A stretch of 64,000 bases of DNA, taken from an uncultured Rhodospirillaceae bacterium (GTDB taxonomy: Bacteria > Pseudomonadota > Alphaproteobacteria > Rhodospirillales > Defluviicoccaceae). The stretch spans positions 29,723-93,722 of the forward strand of contig CAZUDB010000002.1 in assembly GCA_964619055.1 (NCBI GenBank). The letters are read 5' to 3'. Of the stretch, positions 21,187 through 37,098 are shown in pieces. How positions within the stretch are numbered: position 1 is the stretch's first letter; every line of letters starts with the position of its first letter. The notes beneath the pieces are model-generated. The model was given only the letters and a program-made list of their open reading frames with translations, had not been told where the DNA came from and searched no databases. The translations under genes and the position numbers were made by a program.

Positions 21187-21825
21187 TTACGGGCGGTGAA
21201 GCTGGTTGTCGAGCACCTTGTCCTCGTAGGTCTGAACGACATCCTGCAGTTCGACGCGATAGGCGCCGATGAACGGCTCGCGATATCCTAGAACATCTCC
21301 GAAGCTGACCGATCGCAGTCGATCGAGAACCTCGTTGCCGACCCGGAACAGCTCCCCATTTGCGGCCTCGCAAGCCTCGAGTTGGCTGGTGGTTTCGGCC
21401 AAATCTGTGGTCAGTACTTGGCGTTCCACCTCCTTCTGGCGGGCCACGTCCGCCACCTCAGTGTACGCGATTTGCCACTTTTCGTTGTTTTCCAGAAGGG
21501 TGTTGCGATACTCACCTTCCTGCTTCATACGGTCGTTGAATTCCTTCAAAGCGGCCTCATAGCGCACCTCGACCTGAGCCACGCGGTTCTCGGCCGCGCG
21601 CGCAACGTCCTCGATGGATGCCTCCAGCTGTTGCACTTGGCTTTGCAAGGCGGTGCGCTCGTTTTGCAGTGTGGTCACCTGCGCATTGGCTTGGCGAAGG
21701 GCTTGTCGCAACCGCTGCTCCAGCTCCGATTGGGCGGTCACAGCGGCGGGCCAAGCCAACAGCCCGGCCAGCAGCACGGCAGCCGAAAGAAGTACCAACG
21801 GTCGCGAGAGCCTAGAAGCGCGCAT
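21187..21825 (-). CDS. Secreted coiled-coil protein of unknown function (last gene of the TonB/TpsB operon)
   Basis: 212 aa with a signal peptide (LVLLSAAVLLAGLLAWPAAVTAQ) followed by heptad-rich Q/E/R/L sequence. Its start overlaps the porin stop by 14 nt. Confidence 0.6.
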   Translation of the reverse strand: MRASRLSRPLVLLSAAVLLAGLLAWPAAVTAQSELEQRLRQALRQANAQVTTLQNERTALQSQVQQLEASIEDVARAAENRVAQVEVRYEAALKEFNDRMKQEGEYRNTLLENNEKWQIAYTEVADVARQKEVERQVLTTDLAETTSQLEACEAANGELFRVGNEVLDRLRSVSFGDVLGYREPFIGAYRVELQDVVQTYEDKVLDNQLHRP

Positions 21826-23665
21826 TAAGGTCGACCTGTATCACGTCAATGGACAGGGGCGGGCCTGCGATTTCCTCACTGCTCAACCACCGCGCCGCCA
21901 GCCAGGTGTTGTCAGCGATGCCAAGCTGGCCGCGGAGAAAGAAGCCTTTGGCATTGGTGCCGCCCAAGTGAAAATCCGAGTCTGTAAAGCCGTCAACCGC
22001 CGCGTCGCTTTCCAGATACTTGTAGCCGATACCAAACTTCCAGTCCCACAACTCATCAATTTTCGGATACCCGACGGAAAGCTGCACAGTGAAACCTTGG
22101 GAGCCTACATCAGCGTCCTCCACGGGCACAGTCTGGCTGTTATGAACAAGAACAAGCCCACCGCTTGAGGCCAGCTTGTTCTTATTGAACGACAGATTAT
22201 TGACGTACTCGGCATCAAAAATCACGTGGATTGGAGTAAACTTCGTATAATCAAACTTGAGATTGAGTGCCAAGATGTTGAAACCCGTGGCAAGGCCGAA
22301 ATATTGCGGATTGCCAAACAGCGCTTGGTCCGCGGGAGATATGTTTCGCAGGGCAAAGAGGGTGTTACCCTTTTGAGAGAATTGCTGCCGCGTGATATCC
22401 GTCGGGCAATCGTCGTTTTGGAACGCCAGTTCGCAATCGCCAAGCTTGCCTCTCATATTGCTGAAGAAGTAATTAGCGATACCAAAGCCGACTTCGAGGT
22501 CTTCCCGTACATCGAAATCGACACCGATTTGTGATCCAATTAAATAGCGGTTGCGGCTGTCTTCTTTCTCGAGTCGAACGGACGAGAAGTTGAAGGCGGT
22601 GTTGTAAACCGGAAATCCGCCCACCGTGAAAAAGGGTCGTATCTGCGGGGTGGCTTCGAATTGGCCGCTGACCGAGAGGCCGTCAAACTGCACGTCGTCA
22701 TCCCAGATCAGGTTTGTGCGGAAGAACGGGTTCGGGGCCCGGCCCACGTCGATCGTCACCTCATCGATGGGCTTGAAGCGGAGATAGGCCTGATCCAGCC
22801 AGATCTGATACTTGCTGAAGTTACCGCCTTGGGCTCGCGAAGAGGCCGAGCCAAGGGTTTGGTTCGTCGACACCGGGCCGTTGTCGCTACCCGTCGCCAG
22901 TCTGATCCGGGTGGTCACGGGGTCGGCGATCTTGGCTTCCAGACCGACGCGAGCGCGAAGGCGGAAGAGCTGACGGTCCTCAGTCGTGTTGAATGTGGGC
23001 GGAATATCGACAGCCGCCGTATTGAATGGTGTCGGTACGAGGATCGGGTCGCCGGTATTAATCTCGTTCACATCGATAAAGTTGTTGAAGTTCTCGCTTC
23101 CAAAAAAGACCTGTTCGAAGCGGAAGCGAACATCGCCAAACAGCTTGATCCTGGAGGTCCACTCCGGAAACGAGTCCGGGGCGGCCCAACTTTGCGCGCG
23201 GGCCTCGATGAGCACGTCCTGCTTGATATCTTCTGTGATCTGGCGTTTGACCGGTTCAGGAATATAGGGAACGCGTACGGTGCCCGGGTCGGCCAGAACC
23301 ACGCCCACCGGCCGGCCCGCAGCGGCCTCCGCCTGCGCTTGTGCCAACAGGGCCTGTGCTGTTGCCTCGTCGATTACCTTGTTCTGCACGAGAAGGCGGA
23401 TCAGGTTCATGACAACCGTCTCGGACTGCGATGGCGAAAAGGGCGTTGGCGCCACCGGAGGTTCCGTCGGCGGCAGGCTCAATCCGGGTGGCTCAAATGG
23501 CTCCGTGATCACGGTGCTGGGATCGGGGATGCCTTGCCCATATCCCGGCGTGATCGTGGCGATGAAAAGAAGCCCGGCGATCGTTCCGGTCCACACCCTC
23601 AGACCGCACGTTCCTGGCTGCTGACGTCGGTCCTTGCCCGTCGCCGGCCGTCGTTGTTCGGCCAT
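21812..23665 (-). CDS. Putative outer-membrane porin-like beta-barrel protein
   Basis: ORF 21812..23761 was trimmed to MAEQRRP at 23665, which has a GAGAGGGGAG SD. It has a hydrophobic leader, a Pro-rich segment, a helical LIRLLVQNKVIDEATAQALL segment and then long alternating aromatic/polar beta-strand patterns. The C-terminus ends in ...DLNARF. Confidence 0.6.
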   Translation of the reverse strand: MAEQRRPATGKDRRQQPGTCGLRVWTGTIAGLLFIATITPGYGQGIPDPSTVITEPFEPPGLSLPPTEPPVAPTPFSPSQSETVVMNLIRLLVQNKVIDEATAQALLAQAQAEAAAGRPVGVVLADPGTVRVPYIPEPVKRQITEDIKQDVLIEARAQSWAAPDSFPEWTSRIKLFGDVRFRFEQVFFGSENFNNFIDVNEINTGDPILVPTPFNTAAVDIPPTFNTTEDRQLFRLRARVGLEAKIADPVTTRIRLATGSDNGPVSTNQTLGSASSRAQGGNFSKYQIWLDQAYLRFKPIDEVTIDVGRAPNPFFRTNLIWDDDVQFDGLSVSGQFEATPQIRPFFTVGGFPVYNTAFNFSSVRLEKEDSRNRYLIGSQIGVDFDVREDLEVGFGIANYFFSNMRGKLGDCELAFQNDDCPTDITRQQFSQKGNTLFALRNISPADQALFGNPQYFGLATGFNILALNLKFDYTKFTPIHVIFDAEYVNNLSFNKNKLASSGGLVLVHNSQTVPVEDADVGSQGFTVQLSVGYPKIDELWDWKFGIGYKYLESDAAVDGFTDSDFHLGGTNAKGFFLRGQLGIADNTWLAARWLSSEEIAGPPLSIDVIQVDLNARF

Positions 23666-23767
23666 CCGTACTCCCCTCTCTTGTCCTGACCGCCCGCTGG
23701 CCGCGGGCGAATTGGTCCCGTCAAGGTTGGTTTGACGGCGGCGCACGATGGCACCGCCCATGGCGAT

Positions 23768-24493
23768 CTATCCCGCGGTTGCGGCCCGCGCTGCGGTGCG
23801 GATTTTGACGTGCACCAATCCCGAGGACGACAGCAGGTCCTGGGGCGGGGGCCGGTCCAGGACCACGCCTTGCAAGGCCTGTCCCGCCAGCACCGTATCG
23901 ATTTCCGGAACGCCCGTGCTTTCCAACAGCTGGACACGGACAATTCGTCCCGATGAATCAACCCAAACATCCATTCGGGTCCCCCTGAACTGCGAAAAGC
24001 GCAGCTTGTCGTGGCGGCGGATGGCCGATGTAATGCTGCGCTGGACGACGCCGGCATACCACCGCTCGGCCGTTGCGCCGCCCTGACCATCGCGGCCAAG
24101 GCGCGACCCACCGGGCCGGCCGACGAGCCCGAACGCATCACCGGGTCCGGTTCCTTCGGCATCAATGCCCAGATCGCCGGCTGGCGGCGGCTCGTCCAAC
24201 TGCTCAATGGGCTCGGGCTCCAGGGGCTCCGGCTCCTGAATTTCGGGCTCGACGATTTCCTCCTCCTCGGGGGGCGGCGGTTCCTCCTCCACTTCGGGCG
24301 GCGGCGGCGGCGGTGGAGTGTTGAGAAGCGTCACCATCTGCTCTGGCGGGGGGGCTGTCGGCTGCGAGTCCTGAAGGGTCGAGACGAAGACCAGCAGTAG
24401 GGCAGCGGAACCTCCGCCCAAGACCAGCGTGATCAAGCCGAGCATATTGCGCTGCAGCCAGTTGCCTCGCTGTTCCTCGTCCGTGTCCAGCAT
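23768..24493 (-). CDS. tonB: Energy transducer TonB
   Basis: 241 aa with an N-terminal TM, a Pro/Glu-rich rod (PPPPPPPEVEEEPPPPEEEE...EPEPLEPEPIE) and a C-terminal TonB_C-like domain. Confidence 0.8.
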   Translation of the reverse strand: MLDTDEEQRGNWLQRNMLGLITLVLGGGSAALLLVFVSTLQDSQPTAPPPEQMVTLLNTPPPPPPPEVEEEPPPPEEEEIVEPEIQEPEPLEPEPIEQLDEPPPAGDLGIDAEGTGPGDAFGLVGRPGGSRLGRDGQGGATAERWYAGVVQRSITSAIRRHDKLRFSQFRGTRMDVWVDSSGRIVRVQLLESTGVPEIDTVLAGQALQGVVLDRPPPQDLLSSSGLVHVKIRTAARAATAG

Positions 24494-24522
24494 GGCTATA
24501 AACGTCCCGTCCTCGCCTGACC

Positions 24523-24930
24523 TCAGCCGCTTGTGAGGGCCTTGGTGGCCAAACCGATTTTGGTGATGTCCAAGCGCGCGAGCAGGTCGAGAACATCAAT
24601 GACAAGCTGATACGCGGTGTCACCGTCGCCCTTGACAACCACTGGGAACTCCCCCTCGGCCGCTTGGGCCGTACGAAGGCGGCTTTCCAGTTCGCTCAGC
24701 GTCACGGCATAGGTGTCGAGGAAGATTGTCCCATCCCGCGTCACCACGATCGCCTTTGTGCTCGGCTTACCAAGGTTTGGTGCCTCGCTCGCTTTCGGCA
24801 AATCGACCCGGATGCCCTGGATCGCTACCGTTGTCATGATGATGAAAATGATCAGCAACACGTAGGCAAGATCGAGCATCGGCGTGATGTTGATCTCGTC
24901 GTACGGTTTCTCTTCATCCTGCTGTTTCAT
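24523..24930 (-). CDS. exbD: Biopolymer transport protein ExbD/TolR
   Basis: 135 aa. The sequence EINITPMLDLAYVLLIIFIIM followed by a periplasmic domain is the typical ExbD architecture. Confidence 0.85.
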   Translation of the reverse strand: MKQQDEEKPYDEINITPMLDLAYVLLIIFIIMTTVAIQGIRVDLPKASEAPNLGKPSTKAIVVTRDGTIFLDTYAVTLSELESRLRTAQAAEGEFPVVVKGDGDTAYQLVIDVLDLLARLDITKIGLATKALTSG

Positions 24931-24935
24931 CGGAT

Positions 24936-27032
24936 CTATTCCGCGGCAATGCGATCGTCGTTCGCATAACGATCGGGAGCGAACGTCTCGGCGAGCCGGG
25001 TGACGAACTCATCGATGAAGACCTGCATGTCCGCCTGGACGGTCTTGATGCGCGTCAGCAGGTAGTTGTACCCAAACAGGGCGGGAATGGCGACGGCGAG
25101 ACCGGCGACCGTGGCTGTGAGGGCCGCCGCAACACCCGGGGCGATGGCATTGATGTTGACTTCTCCCACAGCGGCGATGCCGGCAAACGTGATCATGACG
25201 CCGATACAAGTGCCGAATAGCCCGAGAAATGGTCCGCCGGAGATGGCGATGGTCAGCATCACCATCATGCGGTTGAGCTTCTGGGATTCCATTACCATCC
25301 GGCCGTCGATCCGTGCACGCACGGCGGCTAGCATCTGGGGGCTCAGGATCAGGCCACTCTGAGCGTCCGCCTGTTGGCGGCTGCGGCGATTGACGCGTCC
25401 ACGCAACTCGAGACAGCCGGACGAATAAAGCCGGTAAAGCGATGATGACCGCAGTTTTCGTTTGGTTTTGGCTGGCAGCTCCTGGCCGCCGCCTAGAAGC
25501 TGGTCCGGGTCCATGGTTTCGAGCAGATCGAGATCATTGGCGACCTTCTCGAACGTGGCGCGAAACACGTCGTTGGCTTTGTCTTGCCGGCTCACGAACA
25601 CGCCTTTGGCATACATAACGACCCAACTGATGACCGCCATGACGAACAGGATGGCGATAACCACCCATCCGTCAAAGGTCACAGATTTGAGGATGATGGC
25701 GAAGTAACCAGTGAGCCAGCTTGAGGATTCCTCTTCGACGGCAAGCGTGACGAGACCGGTCTCCGTTCCTTCCGAAGCGACCATGCCCGCAATTTCCGTG
25801 GGCGTGCGCGCCACCCGTGCAATGCGGAGCTCGTCGATCTCGCCAACAAAGCCCGTTGTGCTGGGTGTGGCTTGGGCAGGCTGCGTAGTGGGCGAGGGGG
25901 TGGCTGCCGTGGCGGGCGGTGCCGTCGTTGGGTCGCCCGCCTCCGACGTGGCTGGTTCGGCAGCGGCGGTGTCCGCCTCAGGGGTCTCTGGACTTGGTTC
26001 TGCCGTCGCGTCGTTGACCTCAGCCGGTGCCGCTGCCACGTCTGCGGGTGCTGCCGCTACGCGTGGCGCCGGCGCAAACGGGTCTCCGCCAAGGGTGATC
26101 GGGCCGCCGATGCCCGGGAACGTGGCCGTTACAGTGGCGGTTGGTTGGCCATCCACGTAAAGACTAACCTCATCCTCGGCACCCGTAACCGCCACGTGTT
26201 GCCACGCTCCGGGCGCCAGCGGCACATCCGACACGATGCGGATTGGACCGTCCGGTCGGCCGATCTCGACGAACGGCGTCGCGCCGTCCACACCGATCAA
26301 AAAAGAGGCCGAGCCGAAGCGACGACTAAGGACGATGGCGTTCTCGCGTCCCTCATCGACCTTCAGCCACATCGAGACCGTCAAAGGCGCGCCGTCGGGA
26401 AAGCTGAGCCACTGCGTGGCCGGGATTTCGATCGTTGTCGCCCCGTCAAACTTGGCAGCGTTACCGATCTGGCCGGCGGGACTAGCCAATCCCGGCGTCG
26501 CGGCGTGATTGCCGTACTCTGTCGAGTCCAGTGGCGGCTCACCTAACTCGGAGAAGTGATAGACCAGGACCGTATCGGCATCGAAGGTCTGAGCCGGATT
26601 TCCCACGGCCGCAGCTTCCGGATTGCCATAGTACACCCAGAGGTCTTGGGTGGTTCCCGGCTGGATATCGCGGCCGTCCAGCCAAACGAGCCCGATGCCC
26701 TGCAAGGCATCATACTTTTCAATGTGAAAGGTGACGGGGGTCTCTGCATCGTCGGCGGTGACAAAGCGGATGTCGATGCCGTTTTCATGGGCTCGGAAGA
26801 AGGGAAACGCCGGATCGGACAGCCGGACCAAAAGCGGTATGCGCTCAATGGCCCCATCAACGGGCGGAGTGACGGCTGTGGTGTCGACCGTAATACGCTT
26901 TCGCAGCGGCCAAGCATCGTCCCACCAAGCATGGGCGACGCTCGTTAGCGCCATGCCGATCGCCAGGACTAACCAAAACAATCGCTGGGCGGCGACGGCC
27001 CGCGTGCGGTCCATAATACGATGGCTTGCCAT
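24936..27032 (-). CDS. exbB: MotA/TolQ/ExbB proton-channel protein with N-terminal periplasmic DUF2341 + LamG (concanavalin-like lectin) modules
   Basis: 698 aa. After the signal/TM it reads WWDDAWPLRKRITVD, the typical DUF2341 start. A LamG-like region follows (LSFPDGAPLTVSMWLKV...WQHVAVTG...VSLYVDG...GEIDELRIARVART), interrupted by an Ala/Pro/Thr-rich tract. Then come three TMs with the MotA_ExbB core (GGPFLGLFGTCIGVMITF...AAALTATVAGLAVAIPALFGYNYL). Confidence 0.8.
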   Translation of the reverse strand: MASHRIMDRTRAVAAQRLFWLVLAIGMALTSVAHAWWDDAWPLRKRITVDTTAVTPPVDGAIERIPLLVRLSDPAFPFFRAHENGIDIRFVTADDAETPVTFHIEKYDALQGIGLVWLDGRDIQPGTTQDLWVYYGNPEAAAVGNPAQTFDADTVLVYHFSELGEPPLDSTEYGNHAATPGLASPAGQIGNAAKFDGATTIEIPATQWLSFPDGAPLTVSMWLKVDEGRENAIVLSRRFGSASFLIGVDGATPFVEIGRPDGPIRIVSDVPLAPGAWQHVAVTGAEDEVSLYVDGQPTATVTATFPGIGGPITLGGDPFAPAPRVAAAPADVAAAPAEVNDATAEPSPETPEADTAAAEPATSEAGDPTTAPPATAATPSPTTQPAQATPSTTGFVGEIDELRIARVARTPTEIAGMVASEGTETGLVTLAVEEESSSWLTGYFAIILKSVTFDGWVVIAILFVMAVISWVVMYAKGVFVSRQDKANDVFRATFEKVANDLDLLETMDPDQLLGGGQELPAKTKRKLRSSSLYRLYSSGCLELRGRVNRRSRQQADAQSGLILSPQMLAAVRARIDGRMVMESQKLNRMMVMLTIAISGGPFLGLFGTCIGVMITFAGIAAVGEVNINAIAPGVAAALTATVAGLAVAIPALFGYNYLLTRIKTVQADMQVFIDEFVTRLAETFAPDRYANDDRIAAE

Positions 27033-28670
27033 CTACAAACCAGCCGAGAGCGTGAAAACCACGTTCTTCTCGTCCTCTTCCTCAAGGCCGACCCGGGTAA
27101 TGGGGAAAGCAATGTCGACGGAACCGCTGACCGTATCGAACAGATCAAATCGTGTGCCAATGCCGGCGCTGAGCAGCCGGAAATTGGCGATTTGCTCGGG
27201 TAGCGGATCGATCACCTTTGCGTCGGCCCCATCCAAAAATGCATAAAAGCGCCACTCATCGACAACATCCAGGCCAGCCAAGTCGTTGACGATCGGAGCA
27301 AGGGAAGGAGCGCGCAATTCGAAGCCGCCGAAAATGCCCTCGTCGGCAAGCGCGGATGACTCGAAGAACCCGCGCACTGTGGTCAGCCCACCGAGAGATA
27401 GCTGCTCATTGATGATCAAGGGGCTACCGGCAAGTTGGCCGCCGACCCGCCCCTGGATTTGAATGTCGTAGGGTAAGGTGTGCGTGTGCTCAAGTCCAGC
27501 TTTTAGATATATGAATGACGGATTTGCGCCAAATCGGTTGCGCTGCACTTCTGTGGCATCGCTGCCCAATTGCCCAAACCCGAAGATAGCATCGACACTA
27601 AATAATGTAGATGAGTTGAGCGTGGTCAGTGCTGCAAAATATGAAAGGGTTCCTGGAAAGTACTTTACGGGGACATCATCTTGTGTGATTTCAAATTCGT
27701 CGGTGAATTCTTTATATTGCAGCGTTACTGAAACATTGTGGAAGAAATCGGGCGCTCCCGGCAAGTCCCAGATCGCACGGGTGCCGATGGAGAAGCCGTC
27801 GCCGATTACGCTAGCATCACCTGCAGACACGACATCGCTGTCCGACGAAAAGCCGAATGCTTCGACGCTTAGGCCTGGAACGATTGGAATGGGCGCGGTG
27901 TAGGACGCGGAGAAGAACTCCGAGTCCAGTCTCCGTTGCGGTGCAACCTGGTAAAACAACCGCAGCGAGTGATCGAGCTGAAATAAGTTATCGTAGCGCA
28001 CCAGCGCGTTGAGGCGGAGCGGTTTGGTCGTGCTGGTGTTGCGGTTGTTTAGTTCCAAGCGGGCGTGTAGCGGCAGGCGTTCATCGACAACCAAGTCCAC
28101 GTCGAAGCTCCGGGCTTCTACGTCCGGCTGCCCTGGAACGAACTGAACTTCGCGGTCACCTGTGTTGAGGGCGGCAATCTCCAGGATCGCCTGTGACAGG
28201 TCGGGGACTGAGCCTTCGGCGAGCGAGGGCACACCATCCTTGATGGCTTGCGGTGTTGTGTAGCGGGCGTTTCGCACGCGCAACCGTCCCACCCGAAACT
28301 CGGTGACCTCGATCCGGATCACGCCCGAGCGAAAGTCCTGGTCCAGCGGCACTGTCACCGCGACCACCTGACGTCCGCTATCCAGGTAAGCCTCTTCGAT
28401 GGATGCCCGCGCCGCTTCCACATCCGCGTCCGTTTTGCCTGGGCCGAGGAAAGGATAAACAATCGTCTCGATCAGCGGGGCGGGGAGCGCCGTGACGCCC
28501 GTGACAGCCACCTCGTAAATGTCAAACTGCGAGGAAGCCAAGGCGGTTTCGGGCTGTGCGCGCGTACTGCCATTCGCGAACGCGGTCGCACACAATACGA
28601 GGACCGCAATGCACAACGACCGGGCTGACGCGGTCCTAACTTGAAGCGGCATGGCCTTAATACCCCGCAT
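27033..28670 (-). CDS. ShlB/FhaC/HecB-type two-partner-secretion transporter (TpsB, Omp85 superfamily)
   Basis: 545 aa with a signal peptide and a POTRA-like region (YEVAVTGVTALPAPLIETIVYPFLG...IRIEVTEFRVGRLRV), followed by a 16-strand-type barrel region. Its stop abuts the exbB-like start (27033/27032). Confidence 0.72.
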   Translation of the reverse strand: MRGIKAMPLQVRTASARSLCIAVLVLCATAFANGSTRAQPETALASSQFDIYEVAVTGVTALPAPLIETIVYPFLGPGKTDADVEAARASIEEAYLDSGRQVVAVTVPLDQDFRSGVIRIEVTEFRVGRLRVRNARYTTPQAIKDGVPSLAEGSVPDLSQAILEIAALNTGDREVQFVPGQPDVEARSFDVDLVVDERLPLHARLELNNRNTSTTKPLRLNALVRYDNLFQLDHSLRLFYQVAPQRRLDSEFFSASYTAPIPIVPGLSVEAFGFSSDSDVVSAGDASVIGDGFSIGTRAIWDLPGAPDFFHNVSVTLQYKEFTDEFEITQDDVPVKYFPGTLSYFAALTTLNSSTLFSVDAIFGFGQLGSDATEVQRNRFGANPSFIYLKAGLEHTHTLPYDIQIQGRVGGQLAGSPLIINEQLSLGGLTTVRGFFESSALADEGIFGGFELRAPSLAPIVNDLAGLDVVDEWRFYAFLDGADAKVIDPLPEQIANFRLLSAGIGTRFDLFDTVSGSVDIAFPITRVGLEEEDEKNVVFTLSAGL

Positions 28671-28795
28671 CGGCCAAGGACGGCTCGGCGGTTGAGCGAG
28701 ATGGATGCCAAGATGGGCGGATCACGTTCACGCCCTTTGGCCAGGGCTGTCTAAACCTGTTTTCGTGCCCATACAAGCGTATGTTCACTCATAAT

Positions 28796-28813
28796 ATGAC
28801 AATTGTGTTACAG
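28796..28813 (-). promoter_or_regulatory. Candidate Pho box for the minus-strand TpsB/TonB operon
   Basis: The minus strand reads CTGTAAC-acaa-TTGTCAT, scoring 5/7 and 6/7 against the CTGTCAT direct-repeat consensus with 11-bp phasing. It lies about 125-140 nt upstream of the tpsB-like start. No convincing -10 follows it. Confidence 0.3.
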
Positions 28814-29185
28814 TAACGTGTACTTCGAGGGTATTAACCTTCATGTTGAACACGTTGTGATCATAGTAAACTGATTCGCGCCGTATATATTTAATAGCTT
28901 AACATACTCGACAGGTTGGTCTTTTCTTGGCTACTGCGTCGCAAAGTGCCTTGCCATCATAGTATAGTAATTCCGGGTGATCGCATGCTAATGGAAGAGG
29001 ACATCAAGCTTCATGCCATGATGTAACCGTGGCGGAAGCTCGCGCTTTCGATCACAGACTGTACAACCCAAGTGGCGTTCACCGCGGTTGTGTTTTCTTT
29101 TGACATTAAATCACCCCCATTTGGGGAATTCTTCTGATATTGTTTTCTGAGCATCGGCTACACTGTCGCGACATTTTAAACTGAC

Positions 29186-29231
29186 TTATCATAAACCTGT
29201 CACCGAGATGTCATCGAGTCTGCAGTAAGAT
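29186..29231 (+). promoter_or_regulatory. Pho box (three 11-bp-phased CTGTCAT-like repeats) plus -10 element upstream of the PstS-like gene
   Basis: TTATCAT (29186), CTGTCAC (29197) and ATGTCAT (29208) are spaced exactly 11 bp apart with A-rich spacers. TAAGAT at 29226-29231 lies 11 nt after the last repeat. Extra CTGTCGC (29163) and CTGACTT (29181) copies sit upstream. Confidence 0.55.
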
Positions 29232-29416
29232 GCTGACTGCGGATGCGCGATTCAGCGGGTGGATTCACTGAAAAACTCAATCGCGACCTTGGTCACGCAA
29301 TGTTGTGTTGAAAAGCAAAGTCATCGTGGGCTGAGCGAATGTTTATCAGCGACGGCAGGCTGAATTGCGATCTGCACTTGGACGATGAATTGAATTTTGG
29401 TCAACTTGGGAGAAAT

Positions 29417-31270
29417 ATGATGGATCGCAAGGTCCTTTTGGGTTCGGTCTGTGCCGCCGCTGTGGTAGTGGCAATGGGGTCGAACACGCCCAGCGCTGTT
29501 GCGCAAGAGCAGATCTTTGGCGGTGGCGCCTCATTGCCGTCCGTCGTGGTCCGCAAGCTCATGAATTGCTTCGCCATTCCCATTGAAAATACCAGCGGCA
29601 CACCCAGTTTCAACGATCCGTTCTGCTCCATCCCGCGGGGTGCGAACGCGTACGTGAGTTACGCGACGGTGGGCAGCAGCCGTGGCCGTGAAGGCTTCGT
29701 TGCTGAAGATTCCCGCGCCCTGGCCCGCAGCCAGCGTCCGAGCACGGGGGTCGTCATTCCGTACTCCAGCACGGCGGGTTCCGACTACGGCACGGACATT
29801 CCGTCGCCTCCGGGCTTCGTGGATGGTGACAACACGCTGCCCAACGGTGTTCTGGTGTTCGACGACAACCGCAACACCTTCAGCCCGGACAGCAACTTCG
29901 ACGACCCGGTCACGGGCCCTCAGCAAACCGGCCTTGCCGGCCTTGGCTTTGACCCTGCGCCTGGCCCGAACCCGGTCGGCTTCTGGCGTCTTCATTACAC
30001 CACCTCCGAAGAGCCCATCTTCCAAAGCACGGCCCAAGGCGGCAGCGGCGTCTTCCGCCAAACCTACGATTGCTACGAAGGCGATGCGAGCAACAACCCC
30101 AACGGTCGTTGCAATCGCAACAAGGAAGCGACCAACGGCAAGCCGTTGCAGATCCCGTTGCTGGCTGTTGGCGTGACGATCGCCTACAACGTGCCCGAGT
30201 TCTGTGATCAGCCGGCCGATGTGGACCCCAACTGCACCAGCCGTTCTCCGTTGCCGCGTCCGCCGTTCCCGGTGAAGGACCCCACACAGCCGGTTCCGAC
30301 TCCCAGCGGCCAAAACCGCCTCGTCATCTCCGAAGGTGCGGCGTGCGGTCTGTTCACCGGCAAAATCGACAGCTGGTCTCACCGCTCGATCTCACAGTAC
30401 TTCAACAACCCGCGTCTGCCGGATGAGGCCGTGACTGGCGTCATTGTCCGTGCAGATGGTAGTGGTACGCAGTTCCTGTTCTCGTCCTGGCTGGATGCGG
30501 TCTGCGACGGTATCGGCAACGTCAAGTTCAACGGTGGTGCCAACGCGTCACCGAATTACGACCAGGACGTGGGTATCTACGAAGTGCCCGGTAACGAGGG
30601 TGTCGCCAACATCGTAGCCGCTAATGACTGGTCGGTTGGCTTCATGACGCCGGGCCTGACCGACCTCTCATCGGACGAGATTGACAGTGCCGGATTCACG
30701 GCGACCGAAATCGGAACGACGGGCAACACGCTGACCGACGCGGGCGGAGTGAAGGACACGCCGGTCTCGGCTCGCATCATCAACCGTGCCGGTAAGGCCC
30801 AACTTCCGACATCTGAGAACGTCCGCGAAACCATCTCAGTCAATTCGGAGCCCCCGCGCTGCAACACGAACGCTGGCGGAAACGTCGTCGCCGGTGAGCC
30901 GTGCTTGGAGCCGGAGAATTGGGGCTTGGCGTTCGATGTGGTCGATCCGGTCGGTCGGGACACGTTCTACCCGATCGTCGGCTTCAACTGGCTGAACCTC
31001 TATGAATGCTATCAGCGTCGTCCCGTGGCGCAGATCATTCAGGAGTTCCTGACGTTCTACTACCGCCAAAACAGGTTCCAAATCACTCGGATCCTGGAAA
31101 ACAACGGCTTTGCCAACCTGCCCGCCGACTGGCAGAGCGCCGTTGAAACCATCATCGTTGCCGGCAACACCCGGCCTTCCGGTGTTGCGGCCTTCGGTAA
31201 CGTGAACGCCGATTGCCTTGGCTTGGCCGGTGCTGGCCGCGGCTGGCAGCCCGGTTTCCCGCCGACCTGA
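29417..31270 (+). CDS. Large secreted PstS-family (phosphate-binding, PBP type 2) protein with long insertions
   Basis: ORF 29339..31270 with start at ATGATG 29417 after a GGGAGA SD. Signal peptide MMDRKVLLGSVCAAAVVVAMGSNTPSAVAQ. PstS-like motifs are GGGASLPSVV, VGSSRGREGF and VRADGSGTQFLFSSWL. It is 617 aa, against about 320-370 aa for ordinary PstS. Confidence 0.65.
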   Translation: MMDRKVLLGSVCAAAVVVAMGSNTPSAVAQEQIFGGGASLPSVVVRKLMNCFAIPIENTSGTPSFNDPFCSIPRGANAYVSYATVGSSRGREGFVAEDSRALARSQRPSTGVVIPYSSTAGSDYGTDIPSPPGFVDGDNTLPNGVLVFDDNRNTFSPDSNFDDPVTGPQQTGLAGLGFDPAPGPNPVGFWRLHYTTSEEPIFQSTAQGGSGVFRQTYDCYEGDASNNPNGRCNRNKEATNGKPLQIPLLAVGVTIAYNVPEFCDQPADVDPNCTSRSPLPRPPFPVKDPTQPVPTPSGQNRLVISEGAACGLFTGKIDSWSHRSISQYFNNPRLPDEAVTGVIVRADGSGTQFLFSSWLDAVCDGIGNVKFNGGANASPNYDQDVGIYEVPGNEGVANIVAANDWSVGFMTPGLTDLSSDEIDSAGFTATEIGTTGNTLTDAGGVKDTPVSARIINRAGKAQLPTSENVRETISVNSEPPRCNTNAGGNVVAGEPCLEPENWGLAFDVVDPVGRDTFYPIVGFNWLNLYECYQRRPVAQIIQEFLTFYYRQNRFQITRILENNGFANLPADWQSAVETIIVAGNTRPSGVAAFGNVNADCLGLAGAGRGWQPGFPPT

Positions 31271-35170: not shown

Positions 35171-36154
35171 ATGAACGTCATTCACGAGCCTCGGTTGCAA
35201 TTTCGATCCATCTGGATCTCGGACATTCACCTCGGAACCCGAGGCTGCAATGCCGACATGCTGCTGGATTTTCTTCGGCAGACGGAATCGGATTACCTCT
35301 ACCTGGTCGGCGATATCATCGATTTCTGGCGGCTTCGCAAGACGTGGTATTGGAAACAAACTCATAATGACGTTATTCAAAAAATCCTTCGAAAAGCCCG
35401 CAAAGGAACGAGGATAATCTACATCCCCGGAAACCACGACGAGAATTTTCGGGACTTTACAAATCACAGATTCGGACGTGTTGCCGTCCTCCATGACACC
35501 TTTCATACCATGGTAGATGGTCGTAAATTTCTGGTCATGCATGGCGACCATTTCGATGGTGTCGTCAAATATGCGAAATGGCTCGCTTATCTTGGCGATA
35601 CGGCTTACGTCTGGCTGCTGAACGTGAACACATGGATGAATTATGTTCGGCGAAAGCTGGGTTTTTCATATTGGTCGTTGTCTGGGTATTTGAAGCATAA
35701 GGTCAAAAACGCGGTTGAATTCGTCAGCAACTACGAAAATGCTGTTGTTTCGGAGGCACGGCGCCGTGGCGCCGACGGCGTGATTTGCGGCCACATTCAC
35801 ACGGCCGAGATCCGCGAAATAGACGGGATTGTCTATTGCAACGACGGCGACTGGGTTGAAAGTTGCACAGCGTTGGTGGAGCATTTCGACGGACGGCTTG
35901 AGATCCTACGTTGGTCCGAAGTTTTCGACGTTCGCCAAGCTGAAGGGGCCGCTGGGTCTGAACCGGCAAAGCCTGCTGTTGCCGAGCACGGGATGGCCAG
36001 GGGCTCAGCCTCGGTCCTTGCTGTGCAGCGACTACTGTTGGCGGAAACTGAACGCGCCGGGACGGCGAGGGTTGATCAAGAATGCGGATCTGCATCGTCT
36101 CGGATGCCTGGTTTCCTCAAGTCAATGGCGTTGTTCGCACGCTCCACACGTTAA
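35171..36154 (+). CDS. plcP: LpxH-like calcineurin-type metallophosphoesterase; likely phosphate-starvation phospholipase C PlcP
   Basis: WISDIHLGTRGC, YLVGDIIDFW, IPGNHDE, MHGDHFD and CGHIHTAEI are the metallophosphoesterase motifs. The gene is immediately followed by, and overlaps, a GT4 gene. This is the plcP-agt arrangement known in Alphaproteobacteria. Confidence 0.62.
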   Translation: MNVIHEPRLQFRSIWISDIHLGTRGCNADMLLDFLRQTESDYLYLVGDIIDFWRLRKTWYWKQTHNDVIQKILRKARKGTRIIYIPGNHDENFRDFTNHRFGRVAVLHDTFHTMVDGRKFLVMHGDHFDGVVKYAKWLAYLGDTAYVWLLNVNTWMNYVRRKLGFSYWSLSGYLKHKVKNAVEFVSNYENAVVSEARRRGADGVICGHIHTAEIREIDGIVYCNDGDWVESCTALVEHFDGRLEILRWSEVFDVRQAEGAAGSEPAKPAVAEHGMARGSASVLAVQRLLLAETERAGTARVDQECGSASSRMPGFLKSMALFARSTR

Positions 36155-37098
36155 GCCAGCGGCTGGAGCAGCGTGGGTACGAGCCGCGCTTTGTGACACC
36201 GGATCGTTTTCGAAGCACGCCCTGTCCTACCTATCCCGAGATCCGTCTGGCTATGACTCGGCCCTCGGCCGTGGCCGATATGATAAATGCCATCGAGCCA
36301 AGCGCCGTTCATATCGCAACCGAGGGACCCCTTGGCTGGCTCGCGCGCCATTACTGCCTTAGGCGAGGCTATCCGTTCACCACGGCCTATCACACGCGCT
36401 TCCCCGAATACGTCAAGCCGCGTTTCGGCATTCCGCACTCTTGGAGCTATCGCGTGCTCCGCCACTTCCATGGCCAGTCAGCCGGCATCATGGTGTCGAC
36501 GCCGAGCATCGAAGCGGAGCTTCGGGCGCGCGGATTCGATACCCCAATTAGGCGCTGGACACGCGGCGTCGACCTAACGCTGTTTCGGATTCGCCACGAT
36601 GTCGACTTGCGGCTCCCGCGGCCGATTTCCTTGTTTGTCGGCCGGCTCGCGGTCGAGAAGAACGTGGAGGCCTTCCTGAAACTCCAGCTGCCGGGCAGCA
36701 AGGTCGTGATCGGAGATGGCCCAATGCGGGCCCAATTACACTCCCATTATCCAAACGCACATTTTGTTGGACCGCAGTTTGGGGAAGATTTGGCACGCTA
36801 CTATGCCGGATCGGACGTTTTGGTGTTTTCGAGTCGGACCGACACGTTCGGTCTTGTCATCCTGGAAGCGTTGGCCTCGGGCCTGCCCGTCGCCGCCTAT
36901 CCGGTGCCGGGACCGCAGGACGTTCTGGATGGTTTCGACGTCGGCGTCCTTGACAACGATCTTGGCGCCGCCGTGAAGCGGGCCCTAATGATCGATCGCC
37001 CGCGCTGCCGGGCTTGGGCTGAACGCTTTTCGTGGGATGCCAGCGCGGATCAATTCCTTAGCAATCTCGCGGTGTTTCGCCCCACGGGTCAAACCTGA
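36082..37098 (+). CDS. agt: GT4-family glycosyltransferase; likely diacylglycerol glycosyltransferase (Agt-like)
   Basis: 338 aa starting MRICIVSDAWFPQVNGVVRTL, with a C-terminal GT1-fold E-x7-E-like region (SRTDTFGLVILEALASGLPV). It overlaps the plcP-like gene by 73 nt. Confidence 0.6.
   Translation: MRICIVSDAWFPQVNGVVRTLHTLSQRLEQRGYEPRFVTPDRFRSTPCPTYPEIRLAMTRPSAVADMINAIEPSAVHIATEGPLGWLARHYCLRRGYPFTTAYHTRFPEYVKPRFGIPHSWSYRVLRHFHGQSAGIMVSTPSIEAELRARGFDTPIRRWTRGVDLTLFRIRHDVDLRLPRPISLFVGRLAVEKNVEAFLKLQLPGSKVVIGDGPMRAQLHSHYPNAHFVGPQFGEDLARYYAGSDVLVFSSRTDTFGLVILEALASGLPVAAYPVPGPQDVLDGFDVGVLDNDLGAAVKRALMIDRPRCRAWAERFSWDASADQFLSNLAVFRPTGQT

Follow-up and report, generated by a model that had tools for sequence, protein, structure and literature searches.

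The locus examined here raises the question of which signal governs two divergently oriented transcription units in an uncultured Rhodospirillaceae-like bacterium: a gene for a rare PstS/DING-like protein, and a TpsB-ExbBD-TonB-porin operon that faces away from it. The window, i.e. the whole stretch of DNA analysed (64 kb; C2:29723-93722 of the genome), holds both units, separated by a 746-bp intergenic region (28671-29416). The reading favoured here, to which a probability of roughly 80% is assigned, is that this region contains two outward-facing PhoB-activated promoters, with TAAGAT serving as a sigma-70 -10 element on the plus strand. The flanking genes are as follows:

29417..31270, plus strand: gene for a 617-aa PstS/DING-like secreted phosphate-binding protein (PF12849)
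21187..28670, minus strand: divergent operon, recognised from Pfam matches, comprising the next six genes
27033-28670, minus strand: TpsB (ShlB-type transporter; Pfam)
24936-27032, minus strand: DUF2341-LamG-ExbB fusion (Pfam)
24523-24930, minus strand: ExbD (Pfam)
23768-24493, minus strand: TonB-like protein, without a Pfam or NCBIfam match and named from its position after ExbB/ExbD and the Pseudomonas aeruginosa gene order (PMC7035377)
21812-23761, minus strand: Porin_5 porin (Pfam)
21187-21825, minus strand: coiled-coil protein

The PstS-like protein is double-sized, with large insertions. It matches PF12849 at 28.9 bits (cut-off 27) and TIGR00975 at 70 bits, far under the cut-off of 205, and its best match among solved structures is 4m1v (E = 2e-8), deposited as 'Phosphate-binding protein'. 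We take 4m1v to be a DING/HPBP-type protein. The motifs GGGASLP and RADGSGT can be seen by eye, and the mature N-terminus, QIFGGGASLP, is similar to the DINGGGATLP signature. The reading frame is open from 29339, and the signal peptide, a Shine-Dalgarno sequence (GGGAGA) and the homologues place the start at ATG 29417 or 29420. The protein family is rare: a set of 5.8 billion proteins includes four members, and of 41 relatives one other genome carries it; a metagenome scan with the four-protein alignment returned only distant PstS relatives (24-42% identity over parts) and no new orthologous loci.

The genome (3.29 Mb in 93 contigs, 61% G+C), which has the look of a metagenome-assembled draft and whose one relative in the same genus is a Rhodospirillaceae MAG, encodes a bona fide PhoB whose specificity is predicted to be classical. 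Its gene adjoins phoU and pstSCAB on contig C45 (order pstS-pstC-pstA-pstB-phoU-phoB), the protein scores 351.7 bits against TIGR02154 (cut-off 296.2), its DNA-binding domain aligns with that of Escherichia coli PhoB (1QQI, 1GXP; E = 8e-29), and the recognition helix, RTVDVHIRRLRKAL, is identical to the E. coli one. The upstream regions of canonical pstS were aligned for 13 genomes of the same family, and a PhoB matrix of 11 columns was built from 36 units (7-mer plus spacer) pooled from 12 of them, the genome under study being left out. The family footprint reads nnGTCAY-AAAA-nnGTAAC-nTnA-CTGTCAT-AAAn, followed by a degenerate fourth half-site, 10 nt and TAnnGT; the promoter of the genome's own pstS reads AAGTAAC-aaaa-CCGTCAA-atta-GTGTCAT-ggaa-CTTTCTC-aagttagtca-TAAGGT. 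When all 6.57 million positions of the two strands were scanned, the best triple was this own pstS promoter (30.3 bits), which lies outside the training set, and other matches placed high in the pair and triple lists (top 14-33) lie before a second pstS and genes for phoX, 5'-nucleotidase, GDPD and PpiC. The matrix thus recovers this genome's Pho regulon, and the same motif lies upstream of its own core Pho-regulon genes.

In E. coli the promoters of pstS, phoA and phoB carry CTGTCAT-type 7-bp repeats with an 11-bp period, in a box that replaces the -35 element and lies about 10 nt from the -10. Upstream of the PstS-like gene the following plus-strand elements were located:

29163..29169, plus strand: CTGTCGC, an isolated half-site-like 7-mer at the 10-bp palindrome TGTCGCGACA (5.8 bits, out of phase)
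29186..29192, plus strand: half-site 1, TTATCAT (weak), followed by spacer AAAC; 4.5 bits for the core, 6.4 bits with the spacer, in phase with half-sites 2 and 3
29197..29218, plus strand: core 22-bp Pho box CTGTCAC-CGAG-ATGTCAT-CGAG (half-sites 2 and 3), matching both matrix and consensus
29197-29203, plus strand: half-site 2, CTGTCAC; 9.7 bits for the core, in the top 0.04% of genome 7-mers
29208-29214, plus strand: half-site 3, ATGTCAT; 9.9 bits for the core, in the top 0.04% of genome 7-mers
29226..29231, plus strand: candidate -10 hexamer TAAGAT, 11 nt (29215-29225) past half-site 3
29238..29416, plus strand: predicted 5' UTR of about 179 nt, following from the -10 assignment

On re-reading the sequence, the triple TTATCAT/CTGTCAC/ATGTCAT was found exactly where the first-pass annotation had placed it, with start-to-start distances of exactly 11 bp, and so was TAAGAT, with its 11-nt gap after the last repeat. 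The array thus holds three phased half-sites of the CTGTCAT type, oriented towards the PstS-like gene, of which the two strongest are promoter-proximal. The same annotation had described the 4-nt spacers as A-rich, which is true of AAAC after repeat 1 and wrong for CGAG after repeats 2 and 3; the segments following the repeats are not uniformly A/T-rich, and each CGAG costs about 4.5 bits on the family pstS matrix. Such G/C-containing spacers look like a variant tolerated in this gene family, because the corresponding spacers at two homologous loci (L008 and L010, below) also contain G/C. Two further 7-mers had been put forward as weaker copies, and neither could be retained: CTGACTT (29181-29187) is not a half-site, because it scores -2.2 bits and overlaps repeat 1, and CTGTCGC, despite its 5.8 bits, is offset from repeat 1 by 23 nt, which puts it one base out of phase. 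The palindrome at the latter (29164-29173) was considered and set aside, a palindrome of this size being expected by chance in 746 bp.

Matrix scanning had been named as a check on the original proposal, and the triple outscores shuffled intergenic sequence under every variant of the model (0-9 of 3000 shuffles reach its score; the 746-bp region was shuffled with its dinucleotide content preserved). With spacers scored in full, the triple at 29186 reaches 16.8 bits and ranks 20th in the genome (9/3000 shuffles); with the last spacer dropped it reaches 21.35 bits and ranks 10th (0/3000); and with the 7-mer cores only it reaches 24.0 bits and ranks second (0/3000). The best plus-strand pair alone, spacers scored, is unremarkable at 11.5 bits, a value reached by 310 of 3000 shuffles, and the evidential weight for the triple lies in its cores and their phasing. 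Only eight sites on both strands of the genome match CTGTCAY-N4-CTGTCAY at 13 or more of the 14 positions, none of them at all 14, and 29197-29214 is among the eight. By cores, the pair at 29197/29208 places third among half-site pairs genome-wide. It and the second-placed pair both fall in the intergenic region 28671-29416, each facing its own gene; the chance of a given top site landing in this region is about 1492/6.57 million. No other triple above 11 bits was found within the 64-kb window. The triple is real and far beyond chance, and very probably a genuine PhoB site. Upstream of a plcP-like phosphoesterase and GT4 pair in the window (35171-37098; a phosphate-sparing lipid module), no Pho box of at least 11 bits was found with the matrix.

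Boxes were also found upstream of the homologous gene at the three other loci, the only ones available for comparison, as triples at two of them and as a pair at the third (identities are to the window protein):

L008, uncultured Rhodospirillaceae MAG, 44-52% identity: AATTCAT-cgga-ATGTCAC-ctga-TTGTAAC, 11 nt, TATGGT
L010, 32% identity: ATGTCAT-ccga-CAGTCAC-agcg-CTGTAAT, 10 nt, TAAAAG
L009, 45% identity: two-half-site box TGGTAAC-ataa-ATTTCAT (22.3 bits), with no clear -10 after the box

At every one of these loci the best match lies on the strand of the gene itself, and the distance from the end of the box to the ATG is similar (203 nt in the window, 226 nt in L008, 187 nt in L010 and 208 nt in L009). 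MAFFT alignments of the four upstream regions were uninformative outside the boxes, the flanks being unalignable. The divergent TpsB/ExbB arrangement of the window is shared by L008, in which no strong minus-strand box was found; L010 and L009 lack a TpsB gene beside the PstS-like gene. In L010, PpiC and YbjN genes lie directly upstream of the PstS-like gene, like PA0699 and PA0698.

The other half of the intergenic region carries a site of its own:

28792..28813, minus strand: second, classical two-repeat Pho box, CTGTAAC-ACAA-TTGTCAT-ATTA; 26.2 bits, the second-best pair in the genome
28768..28773, minus strand: possible -10, TATGGG, 11 nt after the position of a degenerate fourth half-site

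None of the 3000 shuffles reached 26.2 bits, and this box, which the first-pass finding on the plus-strand repeats had left unmentioned, outscores the plus-strand triple on the full model. It lies about 385 bp from the plus-strand site and faces the TpsB operon, whose first ATG is at 28670; the region between the two genes is therefore read as a bidirectional, Pho-controlled one. By analogy with the pstS layout, TATGGG may tentatively be taken as the -10 of the minus-strand promoter. In an order-wide search of 200 genomes, the TpsB was found in one other genome (G207). There, the TpsB homologue (L043, G207:C1; 1-853, 1230-1300) has a FecR-like anti-sigma gene immediately before it, and the TpsB upstream region also carries a TTGTCAC-AAAA unit, a combination reminiscent of the vreR/PhoB arrangement in Pseudomonas.

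The geometry of the plus-strand promoter departs in places from the family pattern. A TAnnGT-like hexamer lies 10 nt past the last half-site in 12 of 13 family pstS promoters (TAAGGT in the genome's own); TAAGAT departs from it at position 5, where it has A, and the gap is 11 nt here and in L008 compared with 10 nt in L010 and in the same 12 of 13 promoters. The spacing of PhoB boxes has been reported to be strict (PMC10294691). Together with the CGAG spacers, the length of the gap and the mismatch in the hexamer speak against this precise layout. A sigma-70 consensus scan of the intergenic region gave no promoters and no -35/-10 pair, which fits a PhoB-dependent promoter.

The earlier reading of the element as a candidate PhoB-dependent promoter, in which the box acts as the -35 and drives the PstS-like gene, is supported, and all the computational tests run here fit it. 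Under this reading, phosphorylated PhoB would bind the 22-bp box (29197-29218), a proximal dimer sitting there with help from the weaker upstream unit TTATCAT-AAAC (29186). The box would occupy the place of the -35 element, and PhoB would recruit sigma-70 RNA polymerase to TAAGAT (29226-29231) in a class-II-type promoter. When phosphate is limiting, RNA synthesis would begin near 29238 and give a transcript for the 617-aa secreted protein whose leader is about 180 nt long, and the minus-strand box (28813-28792) would likewise activate the TpsB-ExbB/ExbD-TonB-porin operon. We infer PhoB binding, the sigma factor, the exact -10, the start site and low-phosphate induction from the DNA sequence.

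Compared with the E. coli Pho boxes, the element has the same CTGTCAT-type repeats at 11-bp intervals pointing at the gene, a box that would likewise take the -35 place and a PhoB with the same recognition helix; it differs in the gap to the candidate -10 (11 nt against 10), in having two CGAG spacers where the E. coli ones are A/T-rich, and in having three half-sites instead of an even number. With the pstS promoters of the 13 family genomes it shares GTCAY/GTAAC half-sites and a TAnnGT-type candidate -10 (TAAGGT in the own pstS, TAAGAT here). In pstS, however, the strong sites are distal and the proximal fourth half-site is degenerate, whereas here the two strongest are proximal, and the A-rich spacers of pstS are mostly replaced by CGAG.

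The nearest counterpart of the whole cluster is found in Pseudomonas. The phdA-pdtB-exbB2-exbD2-tonB4-PA0696 operon of P. aeruginosa, which continues to PA0699, is bound by PhoB in EMSA and induced by low phosphate, and pdtB-exbB2-exbD2-tonB4-PA0696-PA0697 is transcribed from the phdA promoter (PMC4971064, PMC7035377). These Pseudomonas genes and the DING gene psp of P. fluorescens are under the control of phosphate starvation and PhoB, and Pho boxes have been demonstrated by EMSA and mutagenesis (PMC4971064, PMC7035377, PMC2225411). The order TpsB-ExbB-ExbD-TonB-porin-coiled coil is alike, a correspondence drawn from domain architecture only. In both cases a two-partner-secretion component accompanies a PstS/DING-type protein; in P. 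fluorescens SBW25, phosphate limitation induces psp, for which a Pho box is predicted, and a giant ORF of haemagglutinin type comes after it (PMC2225411). Unlike its Pseudomonas counterparts, the protein described here has 617 aa with large insertions, and within the window neither a TpsA exoprotein nor vreAIR genes could be seen. The P. aeruginosa pdtA and phdA promoters are sigma-VreI-dependent, with the Pho box upstream of a separate -35 (PMC4971064), whereas here the box would occupy the -35 position.

This last difference bears on an alternative in which PhoB binds the box but an ECF-type sigma factor reads the promoter, so that transcription starts 20-30 nt further downstream and TAAGAT is not the -10. 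The homologous Pseudomonas cluster works in this way (PMC4971064), the FecR-like gene beside the G207 TpsB homologue points in the same direction, and the spacing, at 11 nt, deviates from the 10 nt usual in the family. On the other hand, no ECF sigma or anti-sigma gene adjoins the cluster within the window, no common -35/-10-like motif could be discerned by eye downstream of both boxes, and a TAnnnT hexamer at 11 nt, resembling the family pstS -10, is kept in L008; an ECF-read promoter is accordingly considered unlikely.

The remaining alternatives concern what the plus-strand repeats do, if anything. That they form a PhoB-like site which arose by chance or has no effect on transcription, with the PstS-like gene served by a closer promoter, would be in line with the many inert PhoB sites of E. 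coli (PMC10294691), the poor spacers, an unusually long leader (about 180 nt; that of the genome's own pstS is about 100 nt) and an intergenic AT-richness that inflates matrix matches. Set against this are the genome rank of 2nd to 20th with 0-9 of 3000 same-region shuffles reaching the score, the correct orientation towards a gene of the expected class and the phased box that three homologous loci retain at this distance from the gene although their flanks are otherwise unalignable; an inert site is regarded as very unlikely. Scarcely credible is the proposal that the array is mainly a distal or auxiliary PhoB site for the TpsB operon, acting by cooperative binding or looping with 28813-28792. 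Two sites about 385 bp apart in one region, the minus-strand one being the stronger on the full model, would suit such a role; the direct repeats, however, point away from that operon, the box persists in L010 and L009 even though no divergent TpsB gene lies alongside, and L008 keeps the plus-strand box without a strong minus-strand one. The reading as two outward-facing PhoB-activated promoters is preferred to all three.

If the -10 assignment is right, the leader of the PstS-like mRNA is long, as had been predicted (about 180 nt): from a start site near 29238 to ATG 29417 it would measure about 179 nt. An Rfam scan of 28600-29500 (E <= 1) returned no family, consensus folding of the four homologous leaders gave no pairs, and none of the small ORFs in the intergenic region was convincing. 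Folded singly, the window leader does somewhat better than its shuffled versions (z-score -2.7), whereas that of L008 does not (-1.6). The predicted leader (29238-29376) folds as a long hairpin closed by CGCGATTCAGC (29246-29256) and GCTGAATTGCG (29359-29369), which is not conserved in L008. Across the four homologues the length of the leader (about 180-225 nt) is kept and the sequence is not, and a conserved RNA element receives no support. That the leader carries a second, post-transcriptional layer of control specific to this rare family of giant DING-like proteins is a doubtful proposition; such control could take the form of an undescribed cis-regulatory RNA or a small-RNA target. As a separate observation, the 12-mer ATCGCGACCTTG (29279-29290 in the window; C45:14614-14625) has only four copies in the genome, one of them within the predicted leader of the PstS-like gene and another within that of canonical pstS. 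It may be a chance match, because it is not conserved in relatives.

The plus-strand element adds one more example to a known class of regulatory element, and its biology is textbook. What it would add is the assignment to the Pho regulon, in an uncultured Rhodospirillaceae-like bacterium, of a rare double-sized PstS/DING-like protein and a TpsB-ExbBD-TonB-porin operon, and with it phosphate limitation as a testable condition for studying a cluster that is enigmatic in P. aeruginosa too. Were leader control real, it and the pair of outward-facing boxes would mark the locus out as a phosphate-scavenging module of the outer membrane in a bacterium other than Pseudomonas.

Additional Pho boxes were noted elsewhere in the genome. 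At C16:6672-6715, back-to-back boxes lie between a gene for a PpiC-type isomerase (like PA0699) and one for a 785-aa secreted protein without a Pfam match, both of which are likely further members of the Pho regulon. At C39:1068-1100, a strong box, TTGTCAC-AAGA-TTGTCAC-GATA, lies directly against the start codon (ATG) of an esterase gene with low GC3 and therefore leaves no space for a leader; a further Pho box lies at C39:841.
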